The notes under the pieces: model-generated
The model's database searches: none
The model's input: only the letters and a program-made list of their open reading frames with translations
Told to the model about the DNA's origin: nothing
Translations under genes and position numbers: made by a program
Shown here: piece after piece, positions 3 through 64,000 of the stretch
How the letters are laid out: every line of letters starts with the position of its first letter
Numbering within the stretch: position 1 is the first letter of the stretch
NCBI GenBank assembly: GCA_045535075.1
Contig: JAZSKX010000017.1
Location: 96,001-160,000 of the forward strand
DNA: 64,000 bases
From: Candidatus Spyradenecus sp.
Lineage (GTDB): Bacteria; Verrucomicrobiota; Verrucomicrobiia; Opitutales; UBA953
Direction of reading: 5' to 3'

Positions 3-1187
3 TACGATTACGAAGGAAATGAATTTACGGCGATTAGCCCGAGCGCGAACGCTTACGGGCTGTATGCTGCGGGAGCCGCCAAGGTGAGCAATCTTACAAC
101 GCTCACGGCGAAAGATTCTTACAACGCCTACGGCGTCTATTTGTTCAATGCGGCGGAAGTGGACGCTACAAGCCTGAAGAAAGTCGTAGCACACTCAAAC
201 TCTGTCGGCGGGAGCGCATACGGTATTTTTGTCGATAATAGCGCGAATGGAGAATTCAGCAATTTCACGGGAGATGTCGACGTTCTTTCATTTTGCGGAA
301 CGGCTTACGGTGCGTATGTCAACGGCTTGTCGGAGTGGGATTTGAGTTCTGCGACAATCAAGGTTAAGAGAACGGAAAGCGCTGCCGATTTTGAGAGCGT
401 CAAAAACGAGAATAATATCGGGAGCACGGATAGCTCCGACGAAAGCGGAACTGCCTACGGCGTGTATGTAACGAGAGAGGCGAGCGTCTCCGTGAAAAAC
501 GTAAGCGTTTCCGGAACCGGGAACCTCGTCGGAATTTGGGCGGGAACGGGAACGTCCGTTTCGCTGGCAGACGGCGCGACAATTGACGCAACGGGAGGCG
601 ACGCGCTTGCGTCCGACGGCGATATGACGATCGCTTCGCTCGGCTCGGCGCAACTTGCGGGGAATGCTTCAGTCGCGGGAACGCTTCATTTCACACAGGG
701 CGAGTTTTTGCTCAACGCGGGAACGATTGCCGCCGAAACGTGGAAAATCGGAAGCGAGGATGCAAACGGAATCGTAACGACGGCAAAAGTTGAGCTTGCG
801 GGAAACACCGTATTTGAAGGGAACGAGCTGACGTTCTACATCAAAAAACCGGAGACGCGTGCAATGCAGGATGCCGTGATTTCCGTCGCCGAAGCCACAA
901 CGTTTACCGCCGAAGCCGCAACGTTTACCGCCTTGGCGACAACGATTAACGTCGTTCTCGATCACAACGGCGAATACGGTGTCGGCGACGTGATTACGCT
1001 TATCGGTGGAAACTACGATTTGGGGAATGTGTCGGACGTCGTTGTCCGGGGAAGTGATTTGGGTTACACCTACGGGAACGTCGCGGGCGGCTGGGGCATT
1101 ACGTTTATTCCGGAGCCGTCGGCATTCGGCTTGCTTGCGGGCTTGGGCATGCTCACGCTTGCCGCTTCGCGCCGCCGCCGAAAGTAA
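3..1187 (+). CDS. PEP-CTERM surface protein (5' end lies before the window), with repeated AYG[LVIA][YF] beta-helix-like motifs
   Basis: Frame is open from the window start; C-terminus IPEPSAFGLLAGLGMLTLAASRRRRK; five AYGxY/F repeats. Confidence 0.9.
   Translation, partial: YDYEGNEFTAISPSANAYGLYAAGAAKVSNLTTLTAKDSYNAYGVYLFNAAEVDATSLKKVVAHSNSVGGSAYGIFVDNSANGEFSNFTGDVDVLSFCGTAYGAYVNGLSEWDLSSATIKVKRTESAADFESVKNENNIGSTDSSDESGTAYGVYVTREASVSVKNVSVSGTGNLVGIWAGTGTSVSLADGATIDATGGDALASDGDMTIASLGSAQLAGNASVAGTLHFTQGEFLLNAGTIAAETWKIGSEDANGIVTTAKVELAGNTVFEGNELTFYIKKPETRAMQDAVISVAEATTFTAEAATFTALATTINVVLDHNGEYGVGDVITLIGGNYDLGNVSDVVVRGSDLGYTYGNVAGGWGITFIPEPSAFGLLAGLGMLTLAASRRRRK
887..932 (+). repeat. In-frame 21-bp tandem duplication (AEATTFT/AEAATFT)
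   Basis: cgccgaagccacaacgtttac / cgccgaagccgcaacgtttac / cgcc. Confidence 0.85.
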
Positions 1188-1199
1188 TTTCTCAAACGC

Positions 1200-1233
1200 G
1201 TTCCCGCAGTTAATTTTTCATAATTGCGGGAAC
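1200..1233. terminator. Hairpin formed by an inverted pair of the GCGGGAAC motif
   Basis: gttcccgcagtta ... taattgcgggaac directly after the PEP-CTERM stop. Confidence 0.6.
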
Positions 1234-1271
1234 TTCAGAATCGTGGCATCGTTTTCGGAAATTTTTACGCT

Positions 1272-1724
1272 ATGAAAATCAGCATCGGCAGCGATCACGC
1301 AGGTTTTGAACTTAAACAGGAACTCGCCGAATACCTTCGTTCCCGCGGGCACGAGGTTACGGATTACGGAGCCGCCTCAAAAGCATCCGTGGATTACCCG
1401 CTTTTTGCGCATTCGGTTGCGCAGGATGTCGCTTGCGGGAACGCGGATTTCGGAGTCTTAGTTTGTTGGACCGGCGTCGGAATTTCCATTGCGGCAAACA
1501 AAGTTCCCGGCGTGCGCGCAGTGAATTGCTTCAACGTCGAAATGGCAAAGCTTTGCCGCCAACACAACAACGGGAACGTCATCGCCTTCGGACAAAAATT
1601 CATCGCGCCCGGCTACGCAAAAGACATGCTTGACGTATTTCTCAGCACCGAATTTGAGGGCGGGCGCCACGCACGCCGCGTCGGACAACTCGAAGACATG
1701 AACGCCTGTGCCGTAAAAGATTAA
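1272..1724 (+). CDS. rpiB: Ribose-5-phosphate isomerase B
   Basis: GSDHAG, VCWTGVGISIAANKVPGVRA, FEGGRHARRV motifs; ATG at 1272 preferred over TTG at 1224. Confidence 0.95.
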   Translation: MKISIGSDHAGFELKQELAEYLRSRGHEVTDYGAASKASVDYPLFAHSVAQDVACGNADFGVLVCWTGVGISIAANKVPGVRAVNCFNVEMAKLCRQHNNGNVIAFGQKFIAPGYAKDMLDVFLSTEFEGGRHARRVGQLEDMNACAVKD

Positions 1725-1787
1725 GCAAAGGGAAAAGGAGCTTTCCTCAAACTTTCTTCGTTAGTAATTTTTCACTATTTTCAAACC

Positions 1788-3150: not shown

Positions 3151-3864
3151 ATGAAAAAATCCCAGAATAACCGCAAAGGTTTTACTCTCATTGAACTCCT
3201 GACCGTTATTGCAATTATCGGTATTCTTGCGGCACTCGCCGTCCCGACAATCGGCATCGGTATGGACAAGGTTCGTCAGCTCGTCGCCAGCAACAACCTC
3301 AGCCAAATCGCCAAGTGCTATACCGCTTACATGCAGGAAGGCACAAACGGTCGCACAATCAAGAACACGGGCGACGAACCGGAAAAAGGCACTGCCTCGA
3401 CGGTCGCCGGTGTCGCTGAAATTCTCGCGCGCCGAGCCGGTTTGGTCGACGCGGAAGTTTGGTACATCGCTTCCGACGACAATATCACCGACACGATCCC
3501 GAAGACCGTTCTTGAAGAAGGCGACGACGGAGCCAACCAACTCCGCGAAGTAAAGCCGATTTCCTGGGCAGTTGTCGTCAACACGAAGAAAAACCCGAAA
3601 GCCGGCAAATCCGCTTATCCGATCGCATGGCTCCGCGGGCTCCAAACCTCCGGCGAATGGGATGAAAACGCGCCTTTCGGAAAAGGCACGGGCTTCGTTG
3701 CGTTCGCAGACGGTTCCGTTCGCAAATATGCCAACCTTCTGAACGAAGAAGATCAATTCCGCTCGGCAGACGGAAAACGCGACTCCGAAAACTATTTGGA
3801 CGCAATCGGAGCCAACGGCTCGAACTCCGGTCTCGTTCCGACGGTTCTCGAAGACACGATTTAA
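3151..3864 (+). CDS. Prepilin-type N-terminal methylation domain protein (type IV/T2SS pilin-like, PVC type)
   Basis: KGFTLIELLTVIAIIGILAA cleavage/methylation motif; C-terminal GFVAFADGSV (H-X9-DG-like). Confidence 0.9.
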   Translation: MKKSQNNRKGFTLIELLTVIAIIGILAALAVPTIGIGMDKVRQLVASNNLSQIAKCYTAYMQEGTNGRTIKNTGDEPEKGTASTVAGVAEILARRAGLVDAEVWYIASDDNITDTIPKTVLEEGDDGANQLREVKPISWAVVVNTKKNPKAGKSAYPIAWLRGLQTSGEWDENAPFGKGTGFVAFADGSVRKYANLLNEEDQFRSADGKRDSENYLDAIGANGSNSGLVPTVLEDTI

Positions 3865-3887: not shown

Positions 3888-3920
3888 CGTTCCCGCAAAA
3901 TTCTGCGGGAACGTTTTTTT
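3888..3920 (+). terminator. Intrinsic terminator made of two inverted 9-mer motifs
   Basis: cgttcccgca aaattc tgcgggaacg followed by a T-run. Confidence 0.85.
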
Positions 3921-8522: not shown

Positions 8523-8558
8523 GCGTTCCCGTGATTGATTTCACGGGAACGCTTTTTT
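8523..8558. terminator. Terminator between convergent genes, built from the ACGGGAACG variant pair
   Basis: gcgttcccgtga ttgatt tcacgggaacgc tttttt. Confidence 0.85.
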
Positions 8559-35371: not shown

Positions 35372-38182
35372 TTAAACTTCGTTCGGGAATTTCTCCTTAA
35401 GAGCGTCGCGGCAGCGCGAGGAAACTTTGCCGAACGTTCCCGCGTCGACGAGTTCCGGCATCCAGCGCCACGAGCGCGGGCAACGGACGTAGCCGAGCGT
35501 TTCCGCCTTTACGGCTTCAACGGCGAGCGGCGTTCCCGCAGGCGCATCGGAGAGGCGCACTTCCGAGACGATAAAGGTTTCCGCGAGCAAGGCGGCGTGC
35601 TTTTTCAAAAGCGCGAAGGTTGCATCGGCGGAATCGCCGGAAATCGTGAGCACGGCTTCGAGCGATTGCCCGATGACTTTCGCAGAGCGAAGCGCGTCGA
35701 GCTTCAGATTCACGTTGTCGAGCACTTTGAGCAACGCGTCGAATTCCGCCGCTTCTTTCTCGAAAACGCATTCCGGATTTACCTGCGGCCAATCCTGCAA
35801 AAGAACGGAATCCTTCGCGTATTCGTTTTTCGCCGTGAAAAATCCCCACGCTTCGTCCGTCGTAAACGGAAGCATCGGCGCGAGCATTTTGACGTAAGCC
35901 GTGAAAATCGTGTAAATCGCGGTTTGCGACGAACGGCGTTCCCGCGAGTTCGCGGCGTAGGTGTAAAGGCGGTCTTTGAGAATGTTGTGATAGGTTGCCG
36001 AAAGCGTTTCCACGGTAAACGCGGCGATGGCGGCGTAGGCTTTGTGGAATTCGCAGTTTTCGTAGTTCGCGGTAACGTCGGCGAGAAGGCGGAAGAATTT
36101 CGTGAGCGCCCACTTATCGATCAGCGTTAGCTCCGCAAACGGAACGGCGTCTTTCGCGGGATCGAAATCGTAAAGATTCGAAAGCTGGTAACGGAGCGTG
36201 TTGCGAATGTTGCGATACTGCGTTGCCGTCGCGTCGAGAATGCCGTCGGAAAGCGGAATATCGTTCTGATAATTTTCCGAAGCGATCCAAAGGCGAACGA
36301 TGTCGGCTCCGTATTTGGAAACGTAGCCGTCGGCGGTTTGCGGCTTGCCGTCGGACTTGGAAATTTTCTGGCGCGTGCCTTCGTTGACGACAAATCCGTG
36401 CGTGATGACTTTTTTATACGGTGCGCAGCCGAAATTGATAACGCTCGTCCACAGCGAAGATTGGAACCAGCCGCGATGCTGGTCGGAACCTTCGAGATAC
36501 AAGTCCGCCGGGAACGCGAGGTCCGCGTTGCGCTTCAAGACGGCGGCGGAAGACGAGCCGGAATCGATCCAAACGTCGAGCGTGTCCGTTCCCGCGACGA
36601 GTTTTTCCGGCGCCGGCCAGTTGGCGGGAACATCAATTCCCGCGAGTAGTTCCGCCGGGGATTTTTCAAACCAAATATCGGTTCCCGCGACGGCGATTTT
36701 GTCTGCGATACCGTTGATAACGTTTGCATCGAGAAACGCTTCGCGCGTGTCCGCGTCGTAGAAAACCGGAATCGGCACGCCCCAGGAGCGTTGGCGGGAA
36801 ATACACCAGTCCGGGCGACCTTCAACGGCGGCGCGAATGCGGTTTTCGCCGCTGGCGGGAATCCAGGAAACGTCGCCGATTTGGGCAAGCGCCTTGGCGC
36901 GCATACCGTTTTTGTCGAGCGCGACGAACCATTGGTCCATGGCGCGGAAAATCACCGGCGTTTTCGAGCGCCAGCAGTGCGGGTATTGGTGGTCGATTTT
37001 CGCGACTTTTAAAAGCTTGCCCGAAGCTTCGAGCAGTTTCAAAACTTCGATGTTTGCCGGGCATTTTCCGTTGGTATCCAAAACGGAGATACCGACGAGC
37101 GACGCGGGAACGCGACCGTCATTGGCGTAAACGCCTTCGTCGTTGACCGGACAATAAATTTCGATGCCGTAGCGCAGGCAGGTTTGGTAGTCTTCAAGCC
37201 CGTGCCCGCCGGCGGTGTGGACGCAGCCCGTTCCCGCGTCGGTCGTGATGTAATCGGCGCAAACGACGGGCGAAGTGCGCGCGCAAATCGGATGTTGCGT
37301 TTGAATGCCTTCGAGGGTTTTTCCGAGGACTTTCGCGCCGCGCGCCGCGCCTTCCAAGCCGCAATCGGCGATGAATTTTTCCGCGAGAGCGTCGGCAACG
37401 ATGTAAATTTTTCCGGCGTGGGAAATTTCGACGTATTCAAGTTCCGGATGCACGGCGACAGCCATGTTTGCGGGAATCGTCCACGGAGTCGTTGTCCAGA
37501 TGACAAAATTCTTTTCCGGCGCGTCGATTTGCGGGAACGCGACCCAAATTGACGGCGAGGTGTGGTTTTTGTATTCGATTTCGGCTTCAGCGAGCGCGGT
37601 TTTGCAGGGAATTGACCAGTAAACCGGCTTTTTGCTGCGGTAAATCAAATCGTTCGCGACCATGTTTGCGAAGGTGCGGACGATGTCGGCTTCGTAGGCG
37701 GGATTTTTCGTTTTGTATTCCGCCGCCCAGTCGGCGAGGATGCCGAGGCGCTTAAATTGTTTGCGCTGTTTTTCGATAAAGCTTTCGGAAAATTCGGCGC
37801 AGGCTTTGCGGATTTCGAGCGGCGTGAGCGTTTTTTCCTTGGCGTGGAGTTCTTTCATCACCTTGTGCTCAATCGGCAAGCCGTGGCAGTCCCAGCCGGG
37901 AACGTAGGGGACGCGGAAGCCGCGCATCGTTTTGTAGCGCATGATGATGTCCTTGAGGAGCTTGTTGAGCGCGGTGCCGATGTGCACGTCGCCGTTGGTG
38001 AACGGCGGCCCGTCGTGGAGAATGTAAGATTTTCCCGTTCCCGCGTTCTTTTGCTGAAGGCGGCTGTAAAGGTCTGTTTCCTCCCAAAACGCGATGCGCT
38101 TGGGTTCGCGGGAGGTGAGATTTGCCCGCATCGGGAAATCCGTTACGGGGAGATTCAAGGTGTCTTTAAGTTCCACTGCCAT
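35372..38182 (-). CDS. ileS: Isoleucine--tRNA ligase
   Basis: LHDGPP..NG..HIG, GWDCHGLPIE, WCISRQR, YLEGSDQHRGWF, KISKS (KMSKS). Confidence 0.98.
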   Translation of the reverse strand: MAVELKDTLNLPVTDFPMRANLTSREPKRIAFWEETDLYSRLQQKNAGTGKSYILHDGPPFTNGDVHIGTALNKLLKDIIMRYKTMRGFRVPYVPGWDCHGLPIEHKVMKELHAKEKTLTPLEIRKACAEFSESFIEKQRKQFKRLGILADWAAEYKTKNPAYEADIVRTFANMVANDLIYRSKKPVYWSIPCKTALAEAEIEYKNHTSPSIWVAFPQIDAPEKNFVIWTTTPWTIPANMAVAVHPELEYVEISHAGKIYIVADALAEKFIADCGLEGAARGAKVLGKTLEGIQTQHPICARTSPVVCADYITTDAGTGCVHTAGGHGLEDYQTCLRYGIEIYCPVNDEGVYANDGRVPASLVGISVLDTNGKCPANIEVLKLLEASGKLLKVAKIDHQYPHCWRSKTPVIFRAMDQWFVALDKNGMRAKALAQIGDVSWIPASGENRIRAAVEGRPDWCISRQRSWGVPIPVFYDADTREAFLDANVINGIADKIAVAGTDIWFEKSPAELLAGIDVPANWPAPEKLVAGTDTLDVWIDSGSSSAAVLKRNADLAFPADLYLEGSDQHRGWFQSSLWTSVINFGCAPYKKVITHGFVVNEGTRQKISKSDGKPQTADGYVSKYGADIVRLWIASENYQNDIPLSDGILDATATQYRNIRNTLRYQLSNLYDFDPAKDAVPFAELTLIDKWALTKFFRLLADVTANYENCEFHKAYAAIAAFTVETLSATYHNILKDRLYTYAANSRERRSSQTAIYTIFTAYVKMLAPMLPFTTDEAWGFFTAKNEYAKDSVLLQDWPQVNPECVFEKEAAEFDALLKVLDNVNLKLDALRSAKVIGQSLEAVLTISGDSADATFALLKKHAALLAETFIVSEVRLSDAPAGTPLAVEAVKAETLGYVRCPRSWRWMPELVDAGTFGKVSSRCRDALKEKFPNEV

Positions 38183-41467: not shown

Positions 41468-41502
41468 AACGCGTTCCCGCCAATCTCACGGGAACGCGTT
41501 TT
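41468..41502. terminator. glnA terminator built from a motif pair
   Basis: aacgcgttcccg ccaatctca cgggaacgcgtt. Confidence 0.8.
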
Positions 41503-44125: not shown

Positions 44126-44281
44126 AAAAAACGTTCCCGCGTAAAACCGACTTTCGTCACGCGGGAACGAAAAAGCAAATCATCGGAAGAGGATAGCGAG
44201 CCACCCGTAAAATTTACGGAGTCCGCCCGACTATTTTTCGATTTGAAAGGCTCACGGGAACGTTTCATGCTCTTAAGCATC

Positions 44282-44650
44282 ATGGCAGATACTAATTTTC
44301 TTCCGAAATCCGGTTTGCAAACCGAACGCGCACAGATCCGCGTTTCCACGAAATTCCCGGCAAACAATAATTATGTTTGCAGCTATGAAGTCTTTGTCGA
44401 AGGCGAATTTTTCAAGCCCGAAAACGGGCGTTCGGCGATGATTAACTTTGTCCAAACCGGAGCGCCGCTCGAAAAATCTTATTACGATTACGGGCGTTTT
44501 TGCTTTTTCCTGCCGAATTGCGTTTTGCCGATGTTTGAAGACGTTTTGAACGGTCAGGCGGCGAAGCTTATCGTTCATTTTGTCGTTGAAAACGGACGTC
44601 CGGCACGCGATCAAGCCGAAGCGCAATTCAAAATCACGTTTAAGGTTTAA
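44282..44650 (+). CDS. Hypothetical protein
   Basis: 122-aa ORF ending 3 nt before icd. Confidence 0.7.
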   Translation: MADTNFLPKSGLQTERAQIRVSTKFPANNNYVCSYEVFVEGEFFKPENGRSAMINFVQTGAPLEKSYYDYGRFCFFLPNCVLPMFEDVLNGQAAKLIVHFVVENGRPARDQAEAQFKITFKV

Positions 44651-44653
44651 GCC

Positions 44654-45898
<1,245 letters not shown>

Positions 45899-45961
45899 GC
45901 GCGGGAACGGCTTTTTATCGAAGTAATAAAAAATCCCTTGCGGAAATCGTAAGGGATTTTT

Positions 45962-46046
45962 TGGTACTCGAGAAGGGACTTGAACCCATACGCCTTTCGG
46001 CATCGGAACCTAAATCCGACGTGTCTGCCAATTTCACCACTCGAGC
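45962..46046 (-). tRNA. tRNA-Leu (TAG)
   Basis: GCTCGAGTGGTGAAATTGGCAGACACG TCGGA TTTAGGT TCCGA, long variable arm, GGTTCAAGTCC, ACCA. Confidence 0.96.
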
Positions 46047-50568: not shown

Positions 50569-50700
50569 ATAAAAAAATTCTATTGTTCCCGCACAAGTTC
50601 CCGCAATTTTTTTCTTAGTAAAAACAACGCATAAGAGCCACGACCAATAAACGATTCTGGCTTTGCGTTCCCGCGGGAAAAAGTTTTAAATGCACGCACT

Positions 50701-52245
50701 ATGCAGAAACTTGCGCTCCTGTCGGTCAGCGACAAAACCGGACTTTTGGATTTCGCCAAAGTCCTTGTCGAAAAACACAACTACAAGCTGCTCTCCACGG
50801 GCGGCACGGCTAAAATGCTCCGCGACGGTGGCTTGCCCGTTACCGATGTGAGCGAGCACACCGGATTTCCGGAAATCATGGACGGACGCGTGAAAACGCT
50901 CCACCCGCGCGTGCACGGCGGGTTGCTCTGCCGCCGCGATCTTCCCGCGCATATGGAACAGGCGGCGAAGCTCGAAATCCCGATGATTGACATGGTTGTC
51001 GTCAATCTTTACCCGTTTGAAGCCACCGTCGCGAAGCCGGATTGCGCTTTTGAAGACGCGATTGAAAATATCGACATCGGCGGACCGTCGATGTTGCGCT
51101 CCGCCGCGAAAAACCACCAAAGCGTTTTCGTCGTTACCGATCCCGCGGACTATTCCCGCGTGCTCGAAGCCATGGACGGCGATCCCGCGACGCTTCCCGC
51201 GTTCCGCCGCGAACTCGCAATGAAGGTTTTCTCCCGCACGGCGGCTTACGACGCTGCAATTGCGAATTATTTGGAAAAACAAACGCCGACACCGGAAACC
51301 GCGCCGGCGTTCCCGCGTCAGTTTAATCTGAATCTGAAAACCGCGCAGGAACTCCGCTACGGCGAAAATCCGCACCAAAACGCCAAGCTTTTCGGCGATT
51401 TTCACAGCTTCTTCAACCAGCTCCAAGGCAAGGAACTCAGCTTCAACAACATTCTCGACATCACGGGAGCGACGAATCTCATCGCGGAGTTTGACCGCCC
51501 GACCGTCGGTATTTTGAAGCACACGAATCCCTGCGGCATCGCGACGGCGGGAACGCTCGCCGAAGCTTGGGATCAGGCTTTTGAAACGGACAAACAGGCT
51601 CCGTTCGGCGGCATCATCGTCGCCAACCGCGAAGTCGACAAAGACCTCGCCGAACGCATCGCGCACATTTTCTCCGAAGTTATCATCGCTCCGTCGTTCT
51701 CGGCGGAAGCGCGCGAAATTTTCGCAAAAAAGAAAAATCTGCGCCTCATGGAACAGGTGAAACCGATTTCGGCGGACAAGCTTTACGACGTGCGCTACGC
51801 CATCGGCGGCGTGCTTGTGCAGGAACGCGATATTAAGGCGATTGATCCGAGCGTTTACAAAGTCGTAACGGAACGCCAGCCGACCGAAGAAGAACTCCGC
51901 GCGATGCTCTTTGGCTGGAAAGTCGTCAAGCACGTTAAGTCCAACGCGATTGTTTACGCGGGTTGCGAACGCACGCTCGGGATCGGCGCCGGGCAAATGT
52001 CCCGCGTGGATTCTTCCCGCATCGCCGTGTGGAAGGCAGGCGAAGCCGGGCTCTCGCTCAAGGGCTCCGTTATCGCGAGCGACGCGTTCTTCCCGTTTGC
52101 CGACGGCTTGCTCGCTGCGGCAGACGCCGGCGCAACGGCGGCGATTCAGCCGGGCGGCTCCGTGCGCGACCAGGAAGTTATCGACGCTGCGAACGCACGC
52201 GGCATGGCGATGATTTTCACCGGACACCGCCACTTCCGCCACTAA
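50701..52245 (+). CDS. purH: Bifunctional AICAR transformylase/IMP cyclohydrolase
   Basis: [45 protein letters not shown]. Confidence 0.98.
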
Positions 52246-52246
52246 G
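52009..52246 (+). repeat. Left 238-bp direct repeat (3' end of the functional purH; attL-like)
   Basis: Matches 56521-56758 with 12 substitutions, 11 of them synonymous. Confidence 0.95.
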
Positions 52247-52257
52247 CGCTAAGCGCC

Positions 52258-52298
52258 AAAAAAAGGCACGGAGAGAAATTCCTCTCCGTGCCTTTTTT
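52258..52298 (+). terminator. Island-supplied purH terminator
   Basis: aaaaaaaggcacggagag aaattc ctctccgtgccttttttt; contains no host 9-mer. Confidence 0.85.
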
Positions 52299-53121
52299 GC
52301 GCCAATTGCCAATCCCGAATTCCGAATGCTTACCGAGAAAGGGAGAACTGATAGCTGATAACGGATAAGTGAAGACGCCTGCGGCGGCGGAATAAGCATC
52401 GAGCATCAAGTGAGCGCCTGCGGCGGAAGGGATAGCTGATAACTGATCCGGACGAAGCGGATCCGCGGATTTCACCAATTGCACGAATTAGAGAAGCTTC
52501 TCCTCGGCTTTGCCTATTCAACGGCTCAGCTTTTAAGCTCTTAAACTCTGCTGTAGGCGGGTGCAGGCACAGCCGAGAGGAATACCGCTTGAGCGGAGTT
52601 ATTGGGTAGTGAGATTCCGTGGCGTGCTTTCCCCAAAGCCAATTATTGAATTCGCTGAGCGGTAATCATTCGGAATTCGAGATTCACTATTCACAATTGC
52701 CTTTCCGAGGCCGTGCGCCGGAGGTGCACGACATAGAATAACCGCGGGTGGAGGCATCGCCGTAACCCGCGGATAATCTGAAAAAACAAGCGCCGTAACA
52801 CGATGGGGAAATAATCCGCTTACGTGTCTGCGGCGCAATGGAACGGGGAAACAGTGAAAAGGTATGGCTGATAGGTCCTCCGGAAGAGGATTTTTGAAAA
52901 ATCCGGGAAAAATGCAAACACGCGTGATTTTCAAAAATCTTTTGCGAGTGTTTTTTTAGATGAAGCAATTTGAATGCAGCTTGGCTTTGTGGCAATTGAC
53001 TCAAGACAGGCGCAAGAATTAATTAACAAATAATTCTTGCATTGCGTCGCAACGAGGCGCAACATTGCAAGCGTTTGCTTTGAGCAATTAGACAAATCAA
53101 CTACTAATACCAGTTACTACC

Positions 53122-53508
53122 ATGTCAAAATCTCAATACTATCAAGCGCCGGGCGAAGAATTTTATCTCTTTGAGGGAGAAAGATTGCTGATGGAAGCAA
53201 GTCTTCAGAAATGCACAGTTCCCGTGATTTCAACGTGTGTCCGCTTGACCGATAAACGTCTCGTTTTTTCTGATGTTTCCCGATGGCTTTCGGTGGGCGT
53301 GTCTTGGCTATTTTGGTTTATGAAGCCTACAAAGGTAAGCTCTTCGCTTTTGAAAAGTGAAATTGTTTCAATGGAACTTGCTTCGACTATCGGGCGAAAG
53401 AAGCTGTCGATCAAAACGAAAACGGGAGAGCATATCGCCATCGCTGCATGGCTGTTTTCGAACTCAGAGGTTATGCGAATCATGCAGTGGTGGAAGGACG
53501 GGGAGTAG
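53122..53508 (+). CDS. Hypothetical protein, bacterial PH/GRAM-like fold
   Basis: LFEGERLL...VRLTDKRLVF pattern typical of bacterial PH domains. Confidence 0.6.
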   Translation: MSKSQYYQAPGEEFYLFEGERLLMEASLQKCTVPVISTCVRLTDKRLVFSDVSRWLSVGVSWLFWFMKPTKVSSSLLKSEIVSMELASTIGRKKLSIKTKTGEHIAIAAWLFSNSEVMRIMQWWKDGE

Positions 53509-53590
53509 GGGCAAAGCCTGACATCCTCCGAATAACCGAAATCCGATTTTTTCTATTAATACACATAAAAACCATTAAACACACAAAAAC

Positions 53591-54076
53591 ATGAGTAACG
53601 AAACACAACATAACTCTGTGACCAGACAAGCTCGTCCGACGAGCAAGGTGCGCAATATCGTTATAGGAGCCCTAGCGGGGCTCGCTTGCCTTGTAACCTT
53701 GGTAGGTTGCGGAGATAGCCTCGAAGATAAAGCTAAGCCCATCGTTGAGAAAGCTTACAAGAATATTGACCTCAATTATACCTATGAATGCCAGAAGATT
53801 GCAAATCTCGAAGAGATTGGGCCCGGCCGCTACCGAGGAACCGCATTAATGAAGGCGGTGGATTTACCAGATTTTATGATCAAGCAGATGGATAAAATCC
53901 GGGAGGCTGCGAAGAGTCCTACTCAGAAGAAGCATGAGTATGAGGGGCGGATACGCGTACTCAAGGAGAATGAGGAGAGACGCGCTAAACTCCAACGTGG
54001 GGAAGGTCCTGTGAAGAGCAGGACAGTCTATATCGAAGATCTCGGAGACTACATGACAGTTGAGTTCGAGAGATAA
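53591..54076 (+). CDS. Hypothetical lipoprotein
   Basis: Hydrophobic signal ending in lipobox LVGC. Confidence 0.7.
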   Translation: MSNETQHNSVTRQARPTSKVRNIVIGALAGLACLVTLVGCGDSLEDKAKPIVEKAYKNIDLNYTYECQKIANLEEIGPGRYRGTALMKAVDLPDFMIKQMDKIREAAKSPTQKKHEYEGRIRVLKENEERRAKLQRGEGPVKSRTVYIEDLGDYMTVEFER

Positions 54077-54128
54077 TCTCTAAAGGCTACATTTTGCTTG
54101 TCGGTTTTCGGGAGGAAACGCCTTTTCG

Positions 54129-55055
54129 GTGTCTCCCGAGAACCGGTTCTTTAACCCTATCCTTGACTTGCCGGTACGTTTTCCCGTGAACTCCCCAAAA
54201 CAACCAAAAGCACGATCCTCTAAACTAACGCCTTTGCAGAAGTTGTTCATTGAAGTTCTTAAGCGCATTAAGGTACTTAAGAGGGCGGACAATAAACCCG
54301 TTTTCAGCGATTGGGAAAGTTTAGCCGACAAGGATTTTTGCAACAAAATGTTCGATGTAGAATACGCCGTTTTGAAAGAAGGGGCGGCGGGCGAATGCAA
54401 AAAAGAAAGCCCGAATTGGGCGGCAATCGTGGGAGACGTTGATGAAGAATTCCTTTTGGAGTTTCAGAATTGGGAAAGCAGTCTTTGCGCTTCCGGAGTC
54501 CATGTTACCGTTTCCGTCGGCTATGCATGGGATTCTCAAAAAGACGTGCGAGGTGACGAGTTTTGGTGTTCTTTGCGGGACATTCTAACCGCGACGACGA
54601 AAACGCTTCAAGAATCCTACGAGGGCTCGAATGTTTTTATTAGCGTTAAACGTTTACGCGCGTCGCACGGTGGGCTTATTCATAGCCGGATCGTCGAATA
54701 CATCGAGAACTCCGATGTTTTGGTCTTTGATATCGCGGGAAGAAAAAGCCGTAAATACTCCGAGGGCTATAACGCCAATGTTCTTTACGAATTAGGTCTG
54801 GCAATGGCACGGAAAGAGGCGGGAAAAATCTTTCTCTGGAAGCCGGAAAAACTTTCCTTGCCTTCCGATCTCTCGTGTTACCTTTGGACCAACTACAAGT
54901 TAAAAAAGAGGGACGGAAAGATGACCCGGACGCTTGTTGATCGTCGTGGCTTTTCCGCCCAATTCCGCAGCGTTTTAGTCGAATGCATTCGCCAGAAACT
55001 TTGTGAACGAGAAAAGGTGCTTCGGGGACAATCGGCTTTCGATTCTTTGCAATAG
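54129..55055 (+). CDS. TIR-like / nucleoside 2-deoxyribosyltransferase-fold protein (start uncertain)
   Basis: IVEYIENSDVLVFDI...NANVLYELGLAMA...LPSDL motif set. Confidence 0.65.
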   Translation: MSPENRFFNPILDLPVRFPVNSPKQPKARSSKLTPLQKLFIEVLKRIKVLKRADNKPVFSDWESLADKDFCNKMFDVEYAVLKEGAAGECKKESPNWAAIVGDVDEEFLLEFQNWESSLCASGVHVTVSVGYAWDSQKDVRGDEFWCSLRDILTATTKTLQESYEGSNVFISVKRLRASHGGLIHSRIVEYIENSDVLVFDIAGRKSRKYSEGYNANVLYELGLAMARKEAGKIFLWKPEKLSLPSDLSCYLWTNYKLKKRDGKMTRTLVDRRGFSAQFRSVLVECIRQKLCEREKVLRGQSAFDSLQ

Positions 55056-55066
55056 TTTTTCTATTT

Positions 55067-56329
55067 ATGGAAGATATTGTTTCCTCGATTGTCGGATTTC
55101 CCTGCAGCCGGGAATTTTTGGAATTACAGGAGTACTATCAACGTAAGTCTTGCTGGGAAATCTTAGGGGTTGCACGGGTGGAAGTGTATCACAGCGCTTT
55201 TATCGCGTGGTTGCTTGATCCGTCCGAGAGCCACGCGATGGGTGTGTTTTGCTTGAGGCGTTTACTTGCAACCGCTGTTCTTGTGGAATCGAAAATAGGC
55301 ACGTCGTGTTGTTCCGAGTGGTTGGATGAAACGTTTCGGCAGGCAATCATCGTGGACAATTATACGATTTCGGATGTTCGCGTAGAAACGGAAAAGGTTG
55401 TTTCATCCGATAAGCCAAGAGACTCCCGCCTTGATATTTTTGTGGAGTGCAAGATTTCAATTGAGAGCAGAGGTCCTTTTGATTTGAAAATGATTATTGA
55501 GAATAAGGTCGGAAGCTCAGAGCATGGGAATCAAACTTCTCGTTACCGAAATTGGGCAGCAAAGGAGTTCCCGGGGGCAAAATTGGCATGCTTCTTTTTA
55601 AGCCCGGAGTTCGGGAGAAAGGAAAAGGCCTTGTCAGAGGCTTGTTTCTTGAAATTCAGCTACCAGCATTTGTTGGAGTATGTTATCACTCCCTTGCTCG
55701 TATCGATGGGGGATTCGCAGGAGCGCGCGAGAGTGGAAGATTATGTGCGGGCGCTTTCGATTTCTACTGGTGTTTACAAACGTGAAGATAAAAAAGATAA
55801 AGGAAATTTTAGGATGGCTATAACAGATAAAGAAAAAGAATTGTTGAAAGCGCTATGGGCGCGTTATGAAAATATCTTACTGGCGGCAGTAGAAGTCATC
55901 GCAGAAGACAAAGCGTTTGCAGAGGGCTTGGGTTTGAGCGAAAAGGACCAAGAGTCTTGCCGCAAAGTCGTTGAACGTGTAAGTGCGCGAGACAGGACGA
56001 AGTATAATCTCAAGTACCAAGGCTGCCGACTTAATGAGTCTCCGCTTCCTAAAAACAGAGTACTTTTTGAAATCGTCAAAAAAATGGAAGCAGTCGGATT
56101 GGAAAATTTTTCATCGCATATTCGGAAGTTTATCAAGGGTTTCGGGAATACTAAGGGGCTTCGCCTCGAAGAAGAAGTAGGCGACAAGAAGCGTTGTCAT
56201 TCCGAGTTTTCCGTCACGTTCGAAGGGAAGATTTATTTAGTTTCGAACCAATGGGGGATAGGCGGAATCAAGGCTCTGAAAAAATTTTTGAACGATGAGA
56301 ATTCAGATTTCAGGATTGAAGAAGTGTAA
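55067..56329 (+). CDS. PD-(D/E)XK nuclease family protein with extra C-terminal domain
   Basis: EVYHSAFIAWLLDP...H, RLDIFV, IIENKV...EH.NQT.RY; C-terminal DRTKY...VSNQWG. Confidence 0.85.
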   Translation: MEDIVSSIVGFPCSREFLELQEYYQRKSCWEILGVARVEVYHSAFIAWLLDPSESHAMGVFCLRRLLATAVLVESKIGTSCCSEWLDETFRQAIIVDNYTISDVRVETEKVVSSDKPRDSRLDIFVECKISIESRGPFDLKMIIENKVGSSEHGNQTSRYRNWAAKEFPGAKLACFFLSPEFGRKEKALSEACFLKFSYQHLLEYVITPLLVSMGDSQERARVEDYVRALSISTGVYKREDKKDKGNFRMAITDKEKELLKALWARYENILLAAVEVIAEDKAFAEGLGLSEKDQESCRKVVERVSARDRTKYNLKYQGCRLNESPLPKNRVLFEIVKKMEAVGLENFSSHIRKFIKGFGNTKGLRLEEEVGDKKRCHSEFSVTFEGKIYLVSNQWGIGGIKALKKFLNDENSDFRIEEV

Positions 56330-56520
56330 TGCGGGTAAATTTGCAAATTCTCAATTGATCCCCCCTTCTCCCCTTCAGCGACAGATGGTGGATTGTCTTT
56401 TGCTATCTCCTTGTAGCGTGCTAGATCAACATCCTTTCGTGCCGTCGCAGGAACGAAACAGAGAGCTTAGTTCTTCGTTCCATTGCGCCGCAGGCACGTA
56501 AACGGATTATTTTTCCCGTC

Positions 56521-56758
56521 GATTCTTCCCGCATCGCCGTGTGGAAGGCAGGCGAAGCCGGGCTCTCGCTCAAGGGCTCCGTTATCGCGAGCGACGCGTT
56601 CTTCCCGTTTGCGGACGGCCTGCTCGCCGCAGCCGACGCCGGCGCGACGGCCGCTATCCAACCGGGCGGCTCCGTGCGCGACCAGGAAGTTATCGACACT
56701 GCGAACGCACGCGGCATGGCGATGATCTTCACCGGACACCGCCACTTCCGCCACTAAG
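56521..56758 (+). pseudogene. purH: Displaced duplicate of the purH 3' end (right direct repeat; attR-like)
   Basis: 78 codons, identical in protein to the PurH C-terminus except one Ala>Thr; no 5' part. Confidence 0.93.
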
Positions 56759-56770
56759 GAAAGATTAAAG

Positions 56771-56817
56771 AAAAGCGTTCCCGCGAAACGGTTTTTGCCG
56801 TGCGGGAACGCTTTTTT
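56771..56817. terminator. Terminator between the purH copy and dtd, built from a 9-mer pair
   Basis: aaaagcgttcccgc...gcgggaacgctttttt. Confidence 0.85.
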
Positions 56818-56819
56818 GT

Positions 56820-57275
56820 TTAAAACTCCGGCTTTCGGGAATCAAGAACGAGCGTCACCGGACCGTCGTTGACAAGCGAAACATTCATCATGGCGCCGAA
56901 ACGACCTGTCGGAACGTTTTTCCCCAAGGCTTCGGAAAGCGCGACAACGAATTCTTCGTAAAGCGGAATCGCTTCGGCGGGAACGGCGGCGCGGTTAAAC
57001 GACGGACGCGATCCCTTCCTCATACTCCCGAAAAGCGTAAATTGGCTAACCACCAGCGCTTCGCCGTCGACATCCCGGATCGAAAGATTCATTTTCCCGT
57101 TCCCGTCTTCGAAAATACGCACGCGCGCCAAGCGCGAAACAAGCCACTCGATGTCCGCAGAAGCATCTCCGGACTCCACGCCGAGAAGGACGAGCATTCC
57201 CGCTCCGATTTCACCGACGACGTTCCCGTCAATCGTAACGCCGGCTTTTTTTACTCTCTGGATAACAGCTCGCAT
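56820..57275 (-). CDS. dtd: D-aminoacyl-tRNA deacylase
   Basis: [24 protein letters not shown]. Confidence 0.96.
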
Positions 57276-57408
57276 AATTCGATTCAATTTGAAGTGGAAT
57301 CACCCATTGCATTTTTCAAAATTCCCGGCTTGTTCGAAAATTTCTCTGAAAACTTCGTTTTGCGGGAAAGACGGACAACCCTCGGAAACGGCAATTTGGC
57401 CAAGTGTG

Positions 57409-60224: not shown

Positions 60225-60233
60225 TTTGCTCCT

Positions 60234-61235: not shown

Positions 61236-61334
61236 TTTATGTTATTTTGTTAAAAGACTTAATATTAGAAAATCACTTTCCGGAAAATCTAAAACGCAAA
61301 ATCCCAATCCCCAAATTCCGATATGCCGTTTTCC

Positions 61335-61625
61335 TTAACGCTTCTTCTTTGCAACGCACGCGATAACATCGAGCACACACGGGCAAACAAGCCGATAAAA
61401 AACCTGCTTCCCGCGCTTGTCGTCTTCAATAATTCCCGCGCTTTTCAAAACGTTCAGGTGCTGACTGACCGTTGCAAACTTCACGCCGACGGCATCGACA
61501 AATTCGCAGACACAATGCTCCGCGCCGTCGGCAAGCTGTGTAACAATCCACAGCCGAATCGGATGCCCGATCGCTTTAAAAATTTCCGCCTGCGCGGCGC
61601 AACGCTCTTTCTTGTAACGCAACAT
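61335..61625 (-). CDS. arsR: ArsR/SmtB family repressor
   Basis: FKAIGHPIRL..., EHCVCEF, VSQHL.VLK.AG. Confidence 0.92.
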   Translation of the reverse strand: MLRYKKERCAAQAEIFKAIGHPIRLWIVTQLADGAEHCVCEFVDAVGVKFATVSQHLNVLKSAGIIEDDKRGKQVFYRLVCPCVLDVIACVAKKKR

Positions 61626-61794
61626 AATTTGTTATTTAGTTGTATAACATAATATAAGACAATCCCCGTCAACACCCAAAATCATGTCTGCGTTCCCGCG
61701 AGATTTCGAAAAAGGAAACGGCGGGAACGCAGGCACAAAGAAAGAGGCGACAATTGCTTGCCGCCTCTTTCTTCGTGAAAAACTTCACTATTTT

Positions 61795-63306
61795 TTAAGC
61801 GCAACGCGTGGCGTGAAGGCGTTCGGGTTCGCTCATTGCGGCGAGTTCTTCGACTTTTTTAATGTCGAGGCCGAGCGCGTTCGCAATGCGCGTCCCGTAA
61901 TCTTTGTCCGCCAAATAGCAGTGCGCGGCGTGGCGGTATTTGACGTTTTCGGTAACGGGCGCAATGTCTGCCGCCGTGTTTGAAATCAGAAGCTGTTTCT
62001 TATCTTCCGTCATCAGTCGGAACAAGTCGCCGGCTTGGTAGAAGCAATCGTCCGTCTTGTCGTCGTAAGGGCTGTGATGGTCAATATCGCCGTCAACCTT
62101 CATTTTCGGCGGACGAACGCTTGCATCGCTTTCCCATTCGCCGAAGCCGTTGGGCGCGTAGCCTTTAGTTGCGCCGGCGTTCCCGTCGACTCGCATAAAT
62201 CCGTCGCGATGATAGGAATGCATCGGGCAACGTGCCTTATTGACCGGAATCTGGTCGTGATTGACGCCGAGGCGGTAGCGTTGCGCGTCGCCGTAGGAAA
62301 ACAGGCGCCCCTGCAACAATTTATCCGGCGAAAAGCCGATTCCGGGAACGACGTGCGCGGGCGCGAACGCCGCCTGCTCGACATCGGCGAAATAATTTTC
62401 CGGATTACGGTTCAGCTCAAGCGTGCCAACTTCAATCAGCGGGAACGTTTTCTGGCTCCACGTTTTCGTGATATCAAACGGATTTTCCTTATAATTTTTC
62501 GCCTGTTCTTCCGTCATGATTTGGAAGAAAAGCCGCCAGCGCGGGAAATCGCCGCGTTCAATTGCGTCAAACAAATCGCGCTGATGGCTTTCGCGGTCGG
62601 AGGCGATGATTTTCGCGGCTTCCTCGTTTGTCAGGTTTTTAATGCCCTGTTGTGTTTTAAAGTGGAACTTCACCCAAAAACGCGTTCCCGCCGCATTGAC
62701 GAGGCTGTAGGTGTGGCTGCCGAAGCCGTGCATGTGGCGATAGCTTGCGGGAATGCCGCGGTCGGACATCACAACGGTGATCTGGTGAAGCGCTTCCGGA
62801 AGCATCGTCCAAAAATCCCAGTTGTTTTGCGGCGAGCGCAAATTTGTTTTCGGGTCGCGCTTCACGGCGTGATTCAAATCCGGGAACTGGAGCGGATCGC
62901 GAATAAAGAAGACCGGCGTGTTGTTGCCGACCAAATCCCAGTTGCCTTCTTCGGTGTAGAATTTGATCGCGAACCCCCGAATGTCGCGCTCCGCATCCGC
63001 CGCGCCGCGTTCGCCGGCGACCGTCGAAAAACGCACGAAAACGTCCGTCTTTTTGCCGATTTCGGAAAAAAGTTTCGCGCAGGTATACTGCGTAACGTCG
63101 TGCGTCGTCGTAAACGTCCCGAACGCGCCGCTGCCCTTGGCGTGCATGCGCCGCTCGGGAATAACTTCGCGGTCGAAATGCGCGAGCTTTTCCATCAGCC
63201 ACACGTCCTGCATCATAATCGGACCGCGCGCGCCCGCAGTCTGCGAGTGAATGTTGTCGGAAACCGGAGCACCGACCTCGTTGGTGAGTTTGTTTTGTTT
63301 TTCCAT
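61795..63306 (-). CDS. katA: Monofunctional haem catalase
   Basis: [44 protein letters not shown]. Confidence 0.97.
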
Positions 63307-63468
63307 GTTTTGTATTTGTTTTATTTTTGAAATGAATACAACTCTTATGCAGGTTTTTCGTTTTGTGTAAAGCTCAGATTTTCACTTCTGTAATAAATTC
63401 GCGTTCCCGCGGAAACGCTTTGTCTATCAAAAACAAAAAAAACGCCGGCTTTTAACCGGCGTTGAAAG

Positions 63469-63544
63469 TGGTGGTCAGGGGCGGGATCGAACCGCCGACA
63501 CAGGGATTTTCAGTCCCTTGCTCTACCGACTGAGCTACCTAACC
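63469..63544 (-). tRNA. tRNA-Phe (GAA)
   Basis: GGTTAGGTAGCTCAG...AGGGA CTGAAAA TCCCT...GGTTCGATCC...GACCACCA. Confidence 0.96.
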
Positions 63545-63684
63545 AAAAATGAAAGAGACTTGATTGAATTGTTTTTACGCTTTTTTGTCAAATTTATTTT
63601 TGTCTTATAACGAATTTTTCTTGTTTGATTTTTTGAAGAATAAATTTGTCGCATTCTGCGGGATTGGCGTAGACTGCTTTATTC

Positions 63685-64000
63685 GTGCGACGTAAATCCA
63701 TCATTTTTCTTTTTATTTTGGCTCTTTCGGCGTTTGGAATACTTGTGTTTTCCTGCGTCGCGGGAACGGCGGAACTCTCGTATACGGAAATTTCGCTCGC
63801 GCTGAAATCATTTTTCGTCGAATCCGGGGAAGAAGCGGATTTTGCGAGGACAATTATTTTTGAAATTCGCCTCCCGCGCGCCGTTGCGGCTTTAATTTGC
63901 GGCTTGGCGTTGGGGACGGCGGGAGCGGCACTTCAGGGGCTTTTTCGCAATCCGCTGGCAGATCCCGGGTTAATCGGAGTTTCCTCCGGCGGCGCGCTCG
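63685..64000 (+). CDS. FecCD/BtuC-family iron-chelate ABC permease (3' truncated; absent from the ORF track)
   Basis: GTG at 63685; translates to IRLPRAVAA...GAALQGLFRNPLADPGLIGVSSGGAL. Confidence 0.92.
   Translation, partial: MRRKSIIFLFILALSAFGILVFSCVAGTAELSYTEISLALKSFFVESGEEADFARTIIFEIRLPRAVAALICGLALGTAGAALQGLFRNPLADPGLIGVSSGGAL

Follow-up and report, generated by a model that had tools for sequence, protein, structure and literature searches.

A short asymmetric word, yRCGGGAACGc with the core CGGGAAC, is dispersed through the genome of this uncultured gut Candidatus Spyradenecus species, and its abundance, placement and distribution among relatives suggest that the whole genus uses it to label its own DNA, as DNA uptake sequences do, a reading to which we assign a probability of roughly 0.55.

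Abundance of the word and the level at which it is maintained

In the window, that is, the whole stretch of 64,000 nucleotides that was analysed, the word is spread over both strands from 540 to 63768, with 105 exact copies of GCGGGAACG, 168 of CGGGAACG and 217 CGGGAAC cores. The first GCGGGAACG lies at 540-548 and the last at 63760-63768; 44 are on the + strand and 61 on the - strand, and 26 of the 105 are not wholly within a called gene (gene calls were rough and made for the present analysis). One-off variants were also found (ACGGGAACG, 40 copies; GCGGGAACA, 16; GCGGGAACC, 8; GCGGGAACT, 6). In 100 dinucleotide-preserving shuffles of the window GCGGGAACG averaged 1.93 copies with a maximum of 7, and none of the 100 reached 105. 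A preliminary description of this DNA had counted about 100 copies, divided roughly 40/60 by orientation, at about 1.6 per kb, in genes as well as intergenic DNA and accompanied by one-off variants around CGGGAAC, and all of this was confirmed. Its chance expectation of 0.5 copies was slightly low against the 1.9 given by the shuffle, which leaves the conclusion of enrichment unchanged.

Genome-wide, GCGGGAACG is present 3,244 times in 1,949,087 bases (1.66 per kb; 1,581 on + and 1,663 on -), with a similar density on all large contigs. It is the commonest 9-mer of the genome, the core CGGGAACG is the commonest 8-mer (5,159 copies), the top 10-mer likewise belongs to yRCGGGAACGc, and CGGGAAC itself occurs 6,528 times. 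The word is non-palindromic with about 10 informative positions: its logo has C at -1 in 94% of copies, G at +6 in 77% and G or A at -2 in 60% and 25%, respectively, and nothing is conserved in the flanks past about 10 bp apart from a weak T preference. The CGGGA positions are nearly intolerant of substitution, any single variant reaching at most 63 copies against 1,614 perfect ones. More even spacing than random is a trait reported for the USS of Pasteurellaceae; here the copies are no more evenly spaced than random, with a coefficient of variation of 0.95-1.07 against 0.83-0.91 for the null, as for control words.

Such an excess could be a by-product of codon usage, of a favoured peptide or of a spreading RNA or terminator element, and indeed 30% of copies lie in the one frame that reads Ala-Gly-Thr, and two giant genes contain 61 and 47 copies, all in the sense orientation. 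Against this, the word occupies all six frames, is denser in intergenic (2.2 per kb) than in coding DNA (1.57 per kb) and recurs unchanged in genomes with a local GC of 0.46 to 0.66. The codon-aware null proposed in the preliminary description left an excess of about tenfold: synonymous shuffling within genes gave 150 ± 14 sense copies where 1,608 were observed and 85 ± 7.5 antisense copies where 1,034 were observed, so that 90% of copies are gone after the shuffle. Codon usage or a peptide as the main cause is ruled out by the shuffle, the frames and the independence from GC, and in all its forms we consider this explanation extremely unlikely. The force behind the word acts on DNA, not on protein, and the proteome is distorted by it. 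Of 1,184 Ala-Gly-Thr tripeptides, 969 are spelt GCGGGAACG, against 84 expected, and the tripeptides AGT and VPA are over-represented 5-fold, RER 3.8-fold and RSR 2.7-fold. A proteome distorted towards the peptides that the word encodes is also known for USS, a parallel with the present word.

Orientation and inverted pairs

The G-rich strand carries 54.7% of copies across the genome, and 51-58% of intergenic copies are on the leading strand. In head-on genes the word tracks the sense strand of the gene, 56-59% of copies lying on the lagging (sense) strand. Once the coding strand had been separated out, the strand-skew check suggested in the preliminary description revealed essentially no polarity with replication. 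These data bear on a Chi-like or KOPS-like signal, which RecBCD or FtsK would read in one direction and which would be selected for its orientation to replication. The word resembles Chi, KOPS and architecture-imparting octamers in being an over-represented G-rich octamer that is slightly commoner on the G-rich strand, and a RecC homologue was found in the genome, so a Chi site should exist. However, those octamers are strongly co-oriented with replication and the present word is not, as the intergenic copies and the head-on genes attest, and inverted pairs in terminators would be senseless for a directional signal. Because replication polarity is absent, the word is not Chi or KOPS; the strand analysis largely refutes this interpretation, which we regard as very unlikely. 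At 2.6 per kb, the 8-mer is also about ten times as dense as Chi in E. coli.

Close pairs of the word have a preferred configuration, 184 being arranged as CGTTCCCG..CGGGAACG and 32 in the opposite way, and pairs of the preferred kind build predicted intrinsic terminators. A motif-pair hairpin lies within -20..+150 nt of the stop codon of 181 of 1,423 genes (158 with a T-run), whereas the opposite arrangement was found near the stops of 15 genes. Pairing in terminators is one of the traits that the preliminary description had named as the signature of uptake sequences. Genome-wide, 93 of 207 hairpins are bidirectional.

Hairpins in the window fold at -21 to -33 kcal/mol with z-scores of -3.6 to -6.8 in RNA fold predictions. 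The pair at 3889..3912, between the convergent pilin and lspA genes and followed by a T-run on the + strand, folds at -24.5 kcal/mol (z -4.8) on the + strand and -22.3 kcal/mol (z -3.6) on the - strand. At 8525..8550, CGTTCCCGTG...CACGGGAACG followed by a T-run occupies the gap between two convergent genes, one ending at 8482 (+) and the other at 8572 (-), and a further pair followed by a T-run, at 41473..41495, lies between an ABC-transporter gene (+, ending at 41072) and the type III glutamine synthetase gene on the - strand, whose 3' end is at 41527. The intergenic pair at 44133..44168, flanked 5' by an A-run, is upstream of the isocitrate dehydrogenase gene (-21.5 kcal/mol, z -3.9). A bidirectional terminator-like hairpin (A-run, pair, T-run) at 56777..56809 lies between two convergent genes, one at 56539-56757 (+) and dtd at 56820-57287 (-), folding at -33.0 kcal/mol (z -6.6) on + and -29.0 kcal/mol (z -6.8) on -. 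On the - strand, the motif-pair hairpin at 61692..61728 is situated just 3' of the catalase gene (61795-63306, -), with -29.9 kcal/mol and z -6.6.

That about 200 hairpins act as predicted terminators would suit a spreading terminator element, yet the 414 arms of the 207 hairpins account for only ~6% of the 6,528 cores. Inverted pairs of about 30-40 bp also look like REP hairpins, which would fit a REP- or MITE-like miniature mobile element; an assembly artefact was considered alongside it. On the other hand, single arms within genes make up more than 90% of copies, the word stands at orthologous codon positions in different species, and conservation ends outside about 10 bp. Because its flanks are not conserved, the word is neither a MITE nor a REP, and it lacks the unit longer than the core and the mostly intergenic location that characterise such elements. 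An artefact is ruled out because 18 species-level genomes have the word, as do named metagenome-assembled genomes (MAGs) with many isolate names and diverse hosts. A mobile or artefactual origin is hardly credible.

Distribution across the genus and in acquired DNA

The word was enriched in 18 of 18 congeners, which are MAGs of gut Opitutales with a local GC of 46-66%, with 340-5,581 copies where the reversed word had 37-87. In the 4 other genera of the family no genome out of 102 was clearly above control, and the same held for 16 further families in the order. The survey of relatives that the preliminary description had advised therefore makes the word genus-specific (18/18 congeners, 0/102 sister-genus genomes). 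Among named loci, it was present wherever IleRS was at least 81% identical, at any local GC (0.46-0.66), with the exception of L052. A trio of sparse genomes is nested within a dense clade in a single-gene IleRS tree that gives L052 no firm position. These three carry one-off decayed copies that have lost information at the 3' positions, and no variant words or dialects were found in the sparse lineages, which have decay instead. We considered CACCACCAACCC, clustered in G014/L052, as a dialect and rejected it, since it is local and not dispersed.

The isoleucyl-tRNA synthetase gene of the window (35372..38182, - strand), with 12 core copies, is the locus on which the cross-species tests of gain, loss and synonymous conservation were carried out, and these tests and the tree rest on this one gene. 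At orthologous sites silent changes gave rise to the word, as did a Lys-to-Ala replacement in two separate lineages. Between motif-rich species, silent-codon identity was 0.831 inside copies (947/1,139) and 0.634 outside (19,841/31,279); no excess was seen in comparisons with motif-poor lineages (0.618 vs 0.614). The extra conservation of synonymous sites in copies is confined to comparisons among motif-rich species.

The word is under-represented in DNA that is putatively of horizontal origin. Only 6 core-free gaps of at least 3.5 kb exist genome-wide, against 0.05 expected. Three of them have a GC of 0.40-0.43: one contains an NgoBV-type restriction-modification system and an AAA ATPase, another a reverse transcriptase together with MmeI and T5orf172 genes, and the third a DEAD+UvrD helicase. 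The window also has a stretch almost free of the word at 51548..56776 (GC 0.48), with no 9-mer from 51555 to 56776, in which the window's two longest core-free gaps (51548-53218 and 53218-55567) are found. It encodes a TIR-domain protein (54129-55055) and a PD-(D/E)XK nuclease (55067-56329); we take it to be a probable acquired defence islet.

Candidate uptake system, known relatives and a HIP1-like alternative

If the word is an uptake tag, a surface or periplasmic part of a type IV pilus-dependent uptake machine would prefer double-stranded DNA with CGGGAAC, and pilus retraction would pull in the fragments that bear it. ComEC would pass these as single strands, DprA and RecA would load them with the help of ComM, and the incoming DNA would replace the homologous allele. 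Since word-bearing alleles would be taken up more often, the word would spread by molecular drive into silent codon positions, tolerated amino-acid changes and intergenic DNA, where inverted pairs may have been co-opted as intrinsic terminators. DNA recently acquired from outside would lack the word, and a lineage with weakened preference would lose it by mutation.

All 19 genomes of the genus have intact ComEC, DprA and ComM. The ComEC here matches the Competence domain only, an architecture that an excerpt of PMC6299819 gives for 6 known transformable strains. For the pilus there are two PilB/GspE-class ATPases, PilC/GspF, a PilM-like protein, a secretin and 7 pilins, and a PilT/PilU retraction ATPase scores above its cut-off. 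ComEA was not found in the genome, the sole strong HHH_3/TIGR00426 match being Tex. The search for competence genes advised in the preliminary description recovered ComEC, DprA, ComM, a secretin and a PilT-bearing type IV pilus, and no ComEA. To our knowledge, pilus clusters of this Akkermansia type are not tied to DNA uptake. ComEC, DprA and ComM are near-universal in bacteria, judging from our control genomes and part of the text of PMC6299819, and their presence is for this reason merely permissive. One of the pilin-like genes lies in the window (3151..3864, +) and encodes a prepilin-type protein of 237 amino acids with an N-terminal methylation motif (N_methyl / IV_pilin_GFxxxE), which belongs to the putative uptake machinery. 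All 19 genomes of the genus carry it, with an identity (54-89%) that follows the phylogeny. Compared across the genus, none of the 7 pilins was unusually conserved or specifically diverged, and this comparison identified no receptor. The motif-poor genomes G001, G002, G013 and G014 have ComEC, DprA, ComM, secretins, ATPases and pilins all intact, and because they keep them all, loss of the word is unexplained by any gene checked.

The closest parallels are the known uptake sequences, which, in the excerpted text of 10.1101/2025.10.24.684340 and PMC1852404, are 9-10 nt long, occur in hundreds to thousands of copies, form inverted repeats in terminators and have a frame bias. Like the DUS of Neisseriaceae, whose reader is the minor pilin ComP, the present word is asymmetric, about 10 nt long and clade-specific, with thousands of copies in a genome of about 2 Mb, in both orientations, in several frames, in intergenic DNA and in terminator pairs of preferred configuration, and its host likewise has a type IV pilus, ComEC, DprA and ComM. 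It differs from DUS in its phylum, Verrucomicrobiota, and in sequence, which is unrelated (to DUS as quoted in part of PMC1852404); here no ComP-like conserved pilin, dialect or ComEA was found. With the USS of Pasteurellaceae it shares a 9-mer core with graded flank preference, a density of about 1-2 per kb and hairpin terminators, while the sequence is again unrelated and lacks an AT-rich extended flank beyond the weak T preference. The USS receptor is itself only predicted, according to an excerpt of PMC12616744. Our literature searches turned up no account of natural transformation, or of uptake sequences, in Verrucomicrobiota, and no publication on the CGGGAAC word.

The preliminary description had proposed a third uptake-sequence system or another drive or binding process. 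The tests support it, with the same hedge still needed, and none of the sequence-level outcomes that it had listed as contrary (no excess under a codon-aware null, strict replication polarity, a lineage without competence genes) was obtained. We give even odds to a third, independent self-specific uptake system in this gut genus of Verrucomicrobiota. It would use a word that has no relation to DUS or USS, its receptor would be no recognisable ComP or ComEA, and its drive would have weakened once (the sparse trio) and been nearly lost once (G014/L052) with core competence genes intact. Were uptake shown, this would be the third unrelated example after the self-marking of Neisseria and Haemophilus, and G014/L052 and the sparse trio would be natural 'knock-downs' that could reveal the reader by comparative genomics.

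A possible though rather unlikely alternative is that some other DNA-level process, unrelated to uptake, maintains the word and that its use in terminators is secondary. The word could be restored by biased gene conversion or by a biased repair of the mismatch or very-short-patch type, or selection could favour thousands of sites for an abundant DNA-binding protein (of the nucleoid, or a self-marker for a nuclease or defence system). The evidence for a DNA-level force (frames, shuffle, IleRS gains, silent conservation) fits this equally well, loss of the word despite retained competence genes is easier to account for if the reader is something else, and the failure to find ComEA points the same way. 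We know of no repair or architectural word that combines asymmetry, strand equality, 2-3 copies per kb and pairing in terminators. In excerpts of 10.1101/2025.10.24.684340 and PMC1852404, DUS and USS are the only words described with all of these traits. There is a precedent in cyanobacterial HIP1 (GCGATCGC), a hyper-abundant 8-mer which, in part of the text of PMC5861425, is 15-300-fold over-represented, in several frames, conserved beyond codons and without known function; the present word shares its over-representation, frames and beyond-codon conservation. However, HIP1 is a palindrome that overlaps methylation sites, whereas the present word, unlike HIP1 and most methylase sites, is asymmetric, and it is terminator-paired and has no link to C5-methylases or Vsr. 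Repair driven by a methylase or Vsr, and Dnd modification, are unsupported by gene distribution: DndC was not found in G000 (99.45% complete), and Vsr is absent from G000 and present in 1 of 19 genus genomes. C5-methylases occur in 10 of the 19 without correlation with the word (the methylase comparison covered the C5 class), there being none in eight motif-rich genomes and the sparse G013 and three in motif-poor G014.

Abundance and placement of the word

The 9-mer GCGGGAACG, put at about 100 copies in both orientations in the preliminary description, occurs 105 times in the window between 540 and 63768 when both strands are counted (44 on the plus and 61 on the minus strand), while dinucleotide-preserving shuffles gave a mean of 1.93 copies and never more than 7. 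The one-off variants said to share a CGGGAAC core were likewise recovered (ACGGGAACG 40, GCGGGAACA 16, GCGGGAACC 8 and GCGGGAACT 6 copies), and the core itself occurs 217 times. Across the source genome (1,949,087 bases in 18 contigs, 99.45% complete) there are 1,581 plus-strand and 1,663 minus-strand copies of the 9-mer, or 1.66 per kb, with the large contigs all alike in density. The top 8-, 9- and 10-mers of this genome are the word or its sub-words (CGGGAACG 5,159, GCGGGAACG 3,244 and GCGGGAACGC 1,614, respectively). Alignment of all 6,920 GGGAAC sites in the genome gave a logo in which the hexamer is preceded by C (94%) and followed by G (77%), with G (60%) or A (25%) two bases upstream and weak preferences for a pyrimidine farther upstream and for C downstream. 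Conservation ends beyond about 10 bp; this is therefore a bare word rather than a MITE or REP unit. Among single-base variants of GCGGGAACGC, the CGGGA positions proved near-intolerant of change (at most 63 copies, against 1,614 perfect ones) and the ends softer.

The copies were placed relative to genes with approximate gene predictions made for this analysis (1,431 genes, 86% of the genome). Outside genes lie 19% of the 9-mers, at a density of 2.2 per kb compared with 1.57 per kb within genes. Genic copies occupy all six frames, led by sense Ala-Gly-Thr (30%) and antisense Val-Pro-Ala (21%) and followed in order by Arg-Glu-Arg, Arg-Ser-Arg, Gly-Asn and Phe-Pro. The excess persists under a codon-aware null, a check suggested with the preliminary description: 1,608 sense and 1,034 antisense copies were observed, against 150 ± 14 and 85 ± 7.5, respectively, after synonymous codons were shuffled within genes. 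Equally, 969 of the 1,184 Ala-Gly-Thr tripeptides are spelt with the word (84 expected), and tripeptides encoded by the word are 2.7-5x above the prediction from amino-acid composition. Together, survival of the codon shuffle and the tripeptide excess show that the force acts on DNA, with the proteome dragged along. The flanks, the frames, the codon shuffle and independence from GC content exclude as the main cause codon usage and peptides as well as RNA or mobile elements. Very long antisense shadow ORFs are also present in the window, at 47500-50052 (plus strand, 850 aa), 44273-46003 (minus strand, 576 aa) and 50686-52242 (minus strand, 518 aa); they face real genes for a GH2 glycosidase, isocitrate dehydrogenase and PurH, and a Pfam scan of the 576-aa and 518-aa ORFs gave no match.

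Copies at most 20 bp apart are found as CGTTCCCG..CGGGAACG in 184 pairs versus 32 in the opposite arrangement. A motif-pair hairpin lies within -20 to +150 nt of the stop in 181 of 1,423 genes (median 27 nt) and is followed by a T-run in 158 of these 181; the opposite arrangement occurs there 15 times. The genome holds 207 such hairpins in total, 93 of which are preceded by an A-run as well as followed by a T-run and are thus bidirectional. Ten lie in the window, and those of the ten that were folded gave -21 to -33 kcal/mol (z from -3.6 to -6.8). Terminator pairs with a preferred configuration are likewise reported for the Neisseriaceae (DUS) and Pasteurellaceae (USS) uptake sequences (PMC1852404; 10.1101/2025.10.24.684340).

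Strand skew against replication had been proposed as a further check, and the word is not polarised: the leading strand holds 51-58% of intergenic copies, and in 20-kb bins the G-rich strand carries 54.7% of all copies. In genes, the sense-strand share was 61-65% when co-oriented with replication and 55-59% when head-on; with a sense preference in both orientations, the mild strand bias is tied to coding and not to replication. A RecC homologue is present in the source genome, and a Chi site is therefore to be expected; the polarity data rule out Chi and KOPS, and the word behaves unlike a Chi site. Two bins of extreme strand bias each correspond to one giant gene, on contigs C5 (125844-140217, minus strand, 4,791 aa) and C8 (185332-198142, minus strand, 4,270 aa), with 61 and 47 copies, respectively, all of them sense. 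GC skew flips from negative to positive on C16, whose bases 96001-160000 form the window, at about 190-200 kb (about 35 kb past the window) and from positive to negative on C2 at about 60-70 kb; these switches mark candidate origin and terminus regions.

Distribution and upkeep within the genus

A survey of relatives found the word enriched in every one of the 18 congeners, where a reversed control word has 37-87 copies. Fourteen of these congeners carry 3,060-5,581 copies, G001, G002 and G013 about 750 each, and G014 340. Among 102 genomes from the family's other four genera, and among 16 other families of the order, none was clearly above control. The closest named database loci around the isoleucyl-tRNA synthetase (IleRS) gene are from gut MAGs of ruminants, chicken and human, under the names Opitutales bacterium, Ca. 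Spyradosoma or Ca. Spyradenecus. The word dominates loci with IleRS at least 81% identical despite a local GC of 0.46-0.66, the exceptions being L052 (no copies) and L039, L040 and L047, a trio in which it is sparse, and loci with IleRS at most 70% identical have no copies.

Dialects in relatives, also envisaged in the preliminary description, were not found: in the sparse congeners, de novo k-mers (49-81 kb per genome) and logos returned the same word, decayed. As a replacement word in G014 and L052, CACCACCAACCC and its relatives were rejected, since they form local clustered arrays, together with a VATTK repeat protein, and are not dispersed. These arrays, with inverted copies of CACCACCAACCC-like words, were seen in the G014 loci L006-L009 and in L052 (for example L052:13505-13630 and L009:10-60), and the repeat-protein gene in this lineage contains repeated GTTGCCACCACCAAG (VATTK) units. 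The IleRS tree supports the genus at 100/100 and the sparse trio at 100/99, nested within a dense 12-row clade (94/97), so the sparseness of the trio is secondary; L052 falls in an unresolved basal polytomy of this single-gene tree. The logo of the trio has lost information at its 3' positions and gained no new preference, and, judged by that logo, the change is decay and not dialect.

A codon alignment of IleRS (window 35372-38182, minus strand) from 19 genomes shows how copies come and go. Silent substitutions create them where Ala-Gly-Thr or Val-Pro-Ala is already encoded, and at one site two separate lineages acquired the word through replacement of Lys by Ala. Sparse lineages have one-off versions such as GCGGGCACG where flanking clades on both sides retain the word. 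Among seven motif-rich representatives, synonymous-codon identity was 83.1% inside copies (947/1,139) versus 63.4% outside (19,841/31,279), and towards the four motif-poor genomes it was 61.8% inside and 61.4% outside; the gain/loss and silent-site tests cover this one gene, and the genome pairs are not independent. In IleRS, something preserves the word in dense species and no longer does so in sparse ones. The IleRS DNA of loci L038 and L045 is 98-99% identical to that of the source genome, and their flanks match other contigs of that genome (some at 95-98%) or match weakly. Three genomes with IleRS at 98-99% identity have flanks that are not collinear. In L039 and L047 the window genes are reshuffled as single-gene blocks, and across these four loci and L054 gene order relative to the source genome is very poorly conserved. 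Rampant rearrangement or exchange could explain this, as could MAG chimerism.

Competence genes and possible readers of the word

Of the competence genes proposed as a check, ComEC (570 aa, with the Competence domain its sole match), DprA, ComM and a secretin were found in the source genome; ComEA was not, the only strong HHH_3 match being Tex. One cluster encodes two PilB/GspE-class ATPases, a PilT/PilU retraction ATPase above the curated cut-off and PilC/GspF, and a second encodes PilM-like and Amuc_1100-like proteins and the secretin (Amuc_1098 family). There are seven prepilin-type genes, one in the window (3151-3864) and four in one cassette. Competence-only ComEC is reported from transformable strains and ComEC-like proteins are described as near-universal (PMC6299819), and these genes are therefore only permissive for transformation. 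All 19 genomes of the genus have intact ComEC, DprA and ComM, and the ATPase cluster is present in 19/19; the secretin is present in 18/19, absent from one 92%-complete genome, and each genome has 7-11 pilins. Gene loss behind the motif-poor lineages was rejected, as ComEC, DprA, ComM, secretin, T2SSE ATPases and pilins are all there, and no checked gene separates sparse lineages from dense. Nor did pilin conservation or divergence point to a receptor: divergence follows phylogeny in the cassette of four, in the pilin of the window and in a 141-aa pilin (C5:99026-99448), so that none stands out as unusually conserved in the manner of ComP. The match to the 141-aa pilin crosses one in-frame TAA in five of 19 genomes (G005, G007, G011, G016 and G017), all motif-rich; this could mean a shorter protein, an alignment overrunning the stop, or a broken gene.

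Taken together, the signature fits the DUS/USS class on almost every point that sequence can test, and we infer a function in DNA uptake. A less likely but serious rival is that a DNA-level reader unrelated to uptake keeps the word, a situation like that of HIP1, the hyper-abundant palindromic word of cyanobacteria. Two traits of uptake sequences are missing here, namely dialects and even spacing, the copies being spaced no more evenly than random. One proposal for HIP1 is a very-short-patch/methylase ratchet (PMC5861425). A Vsr/C5-methylase ratchet is not supported for the present word, with Vsr in 1/19 genomes and C5-methylases in 10/19, without correlation. Nor is Dnd phosphorothioation, considered as the core contains GAAC, since DndC was not found in the source genome.

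No published system of this type in Verrucomicrobiota was found in the literature: the word as a string returned only primers and unrelated matches among the matches listed, uptake sequence with Verrucomicrobia nothing relevant by title or abstract, and Spyradosoma nothing on repeats by title or abstract. A 2025 survey presents sequence-specific DNA uptake as still a trait of two proteobacterial families (10.1101/2025.10.24.684340). If the word does serve uptake, it would be a clean third case, from uncultured gut bacteria of a distant phylum, and DNA self-tagging for transformation would be shown to arise repeatedly. Uptake would also mean a new receptor to be found and frequent gene exchange within the genus, and in this gut lineage without genetic tools the word on donor DNA may render the bacteria transformable. 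If it does not, it is a new hyper-abundant word held, like HIP1, by some DNA-level force.

Word-free islets

The word is usable as a marker for contig binning and for detecting foreign islands in these genomes. Six core-free stretches of at least 3.5 kb were found in the source genome, where 0.05 are expected; rRNA was rejected as their cause, with no Rfam match. Three have a low GC of 0.40-0.43: C12:44633-48943, with a C5-methylase and an NgoBV-type endonuclease (a restriction-modification pair) and an AAA_15/21 ATPase; C2:18463-22107, with genes for a 937-aa reverse transcriptase, an MmeI-like protein (MmeI-TRD) and T5orf172; and C5:229382-234755, with a 1,609-aa DEAD+UvrD fusion helicase. 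An islet nearly without the word also lies in the window (51548-56776, GC 0.48). It holds a TIR-domain gene (54129-55055), whose product has a CAP12/Pycsar-type domain, adjoining a PD-(D/E)XK nuclease gene (55067-56329), and is probably an acquired anti-phage module.
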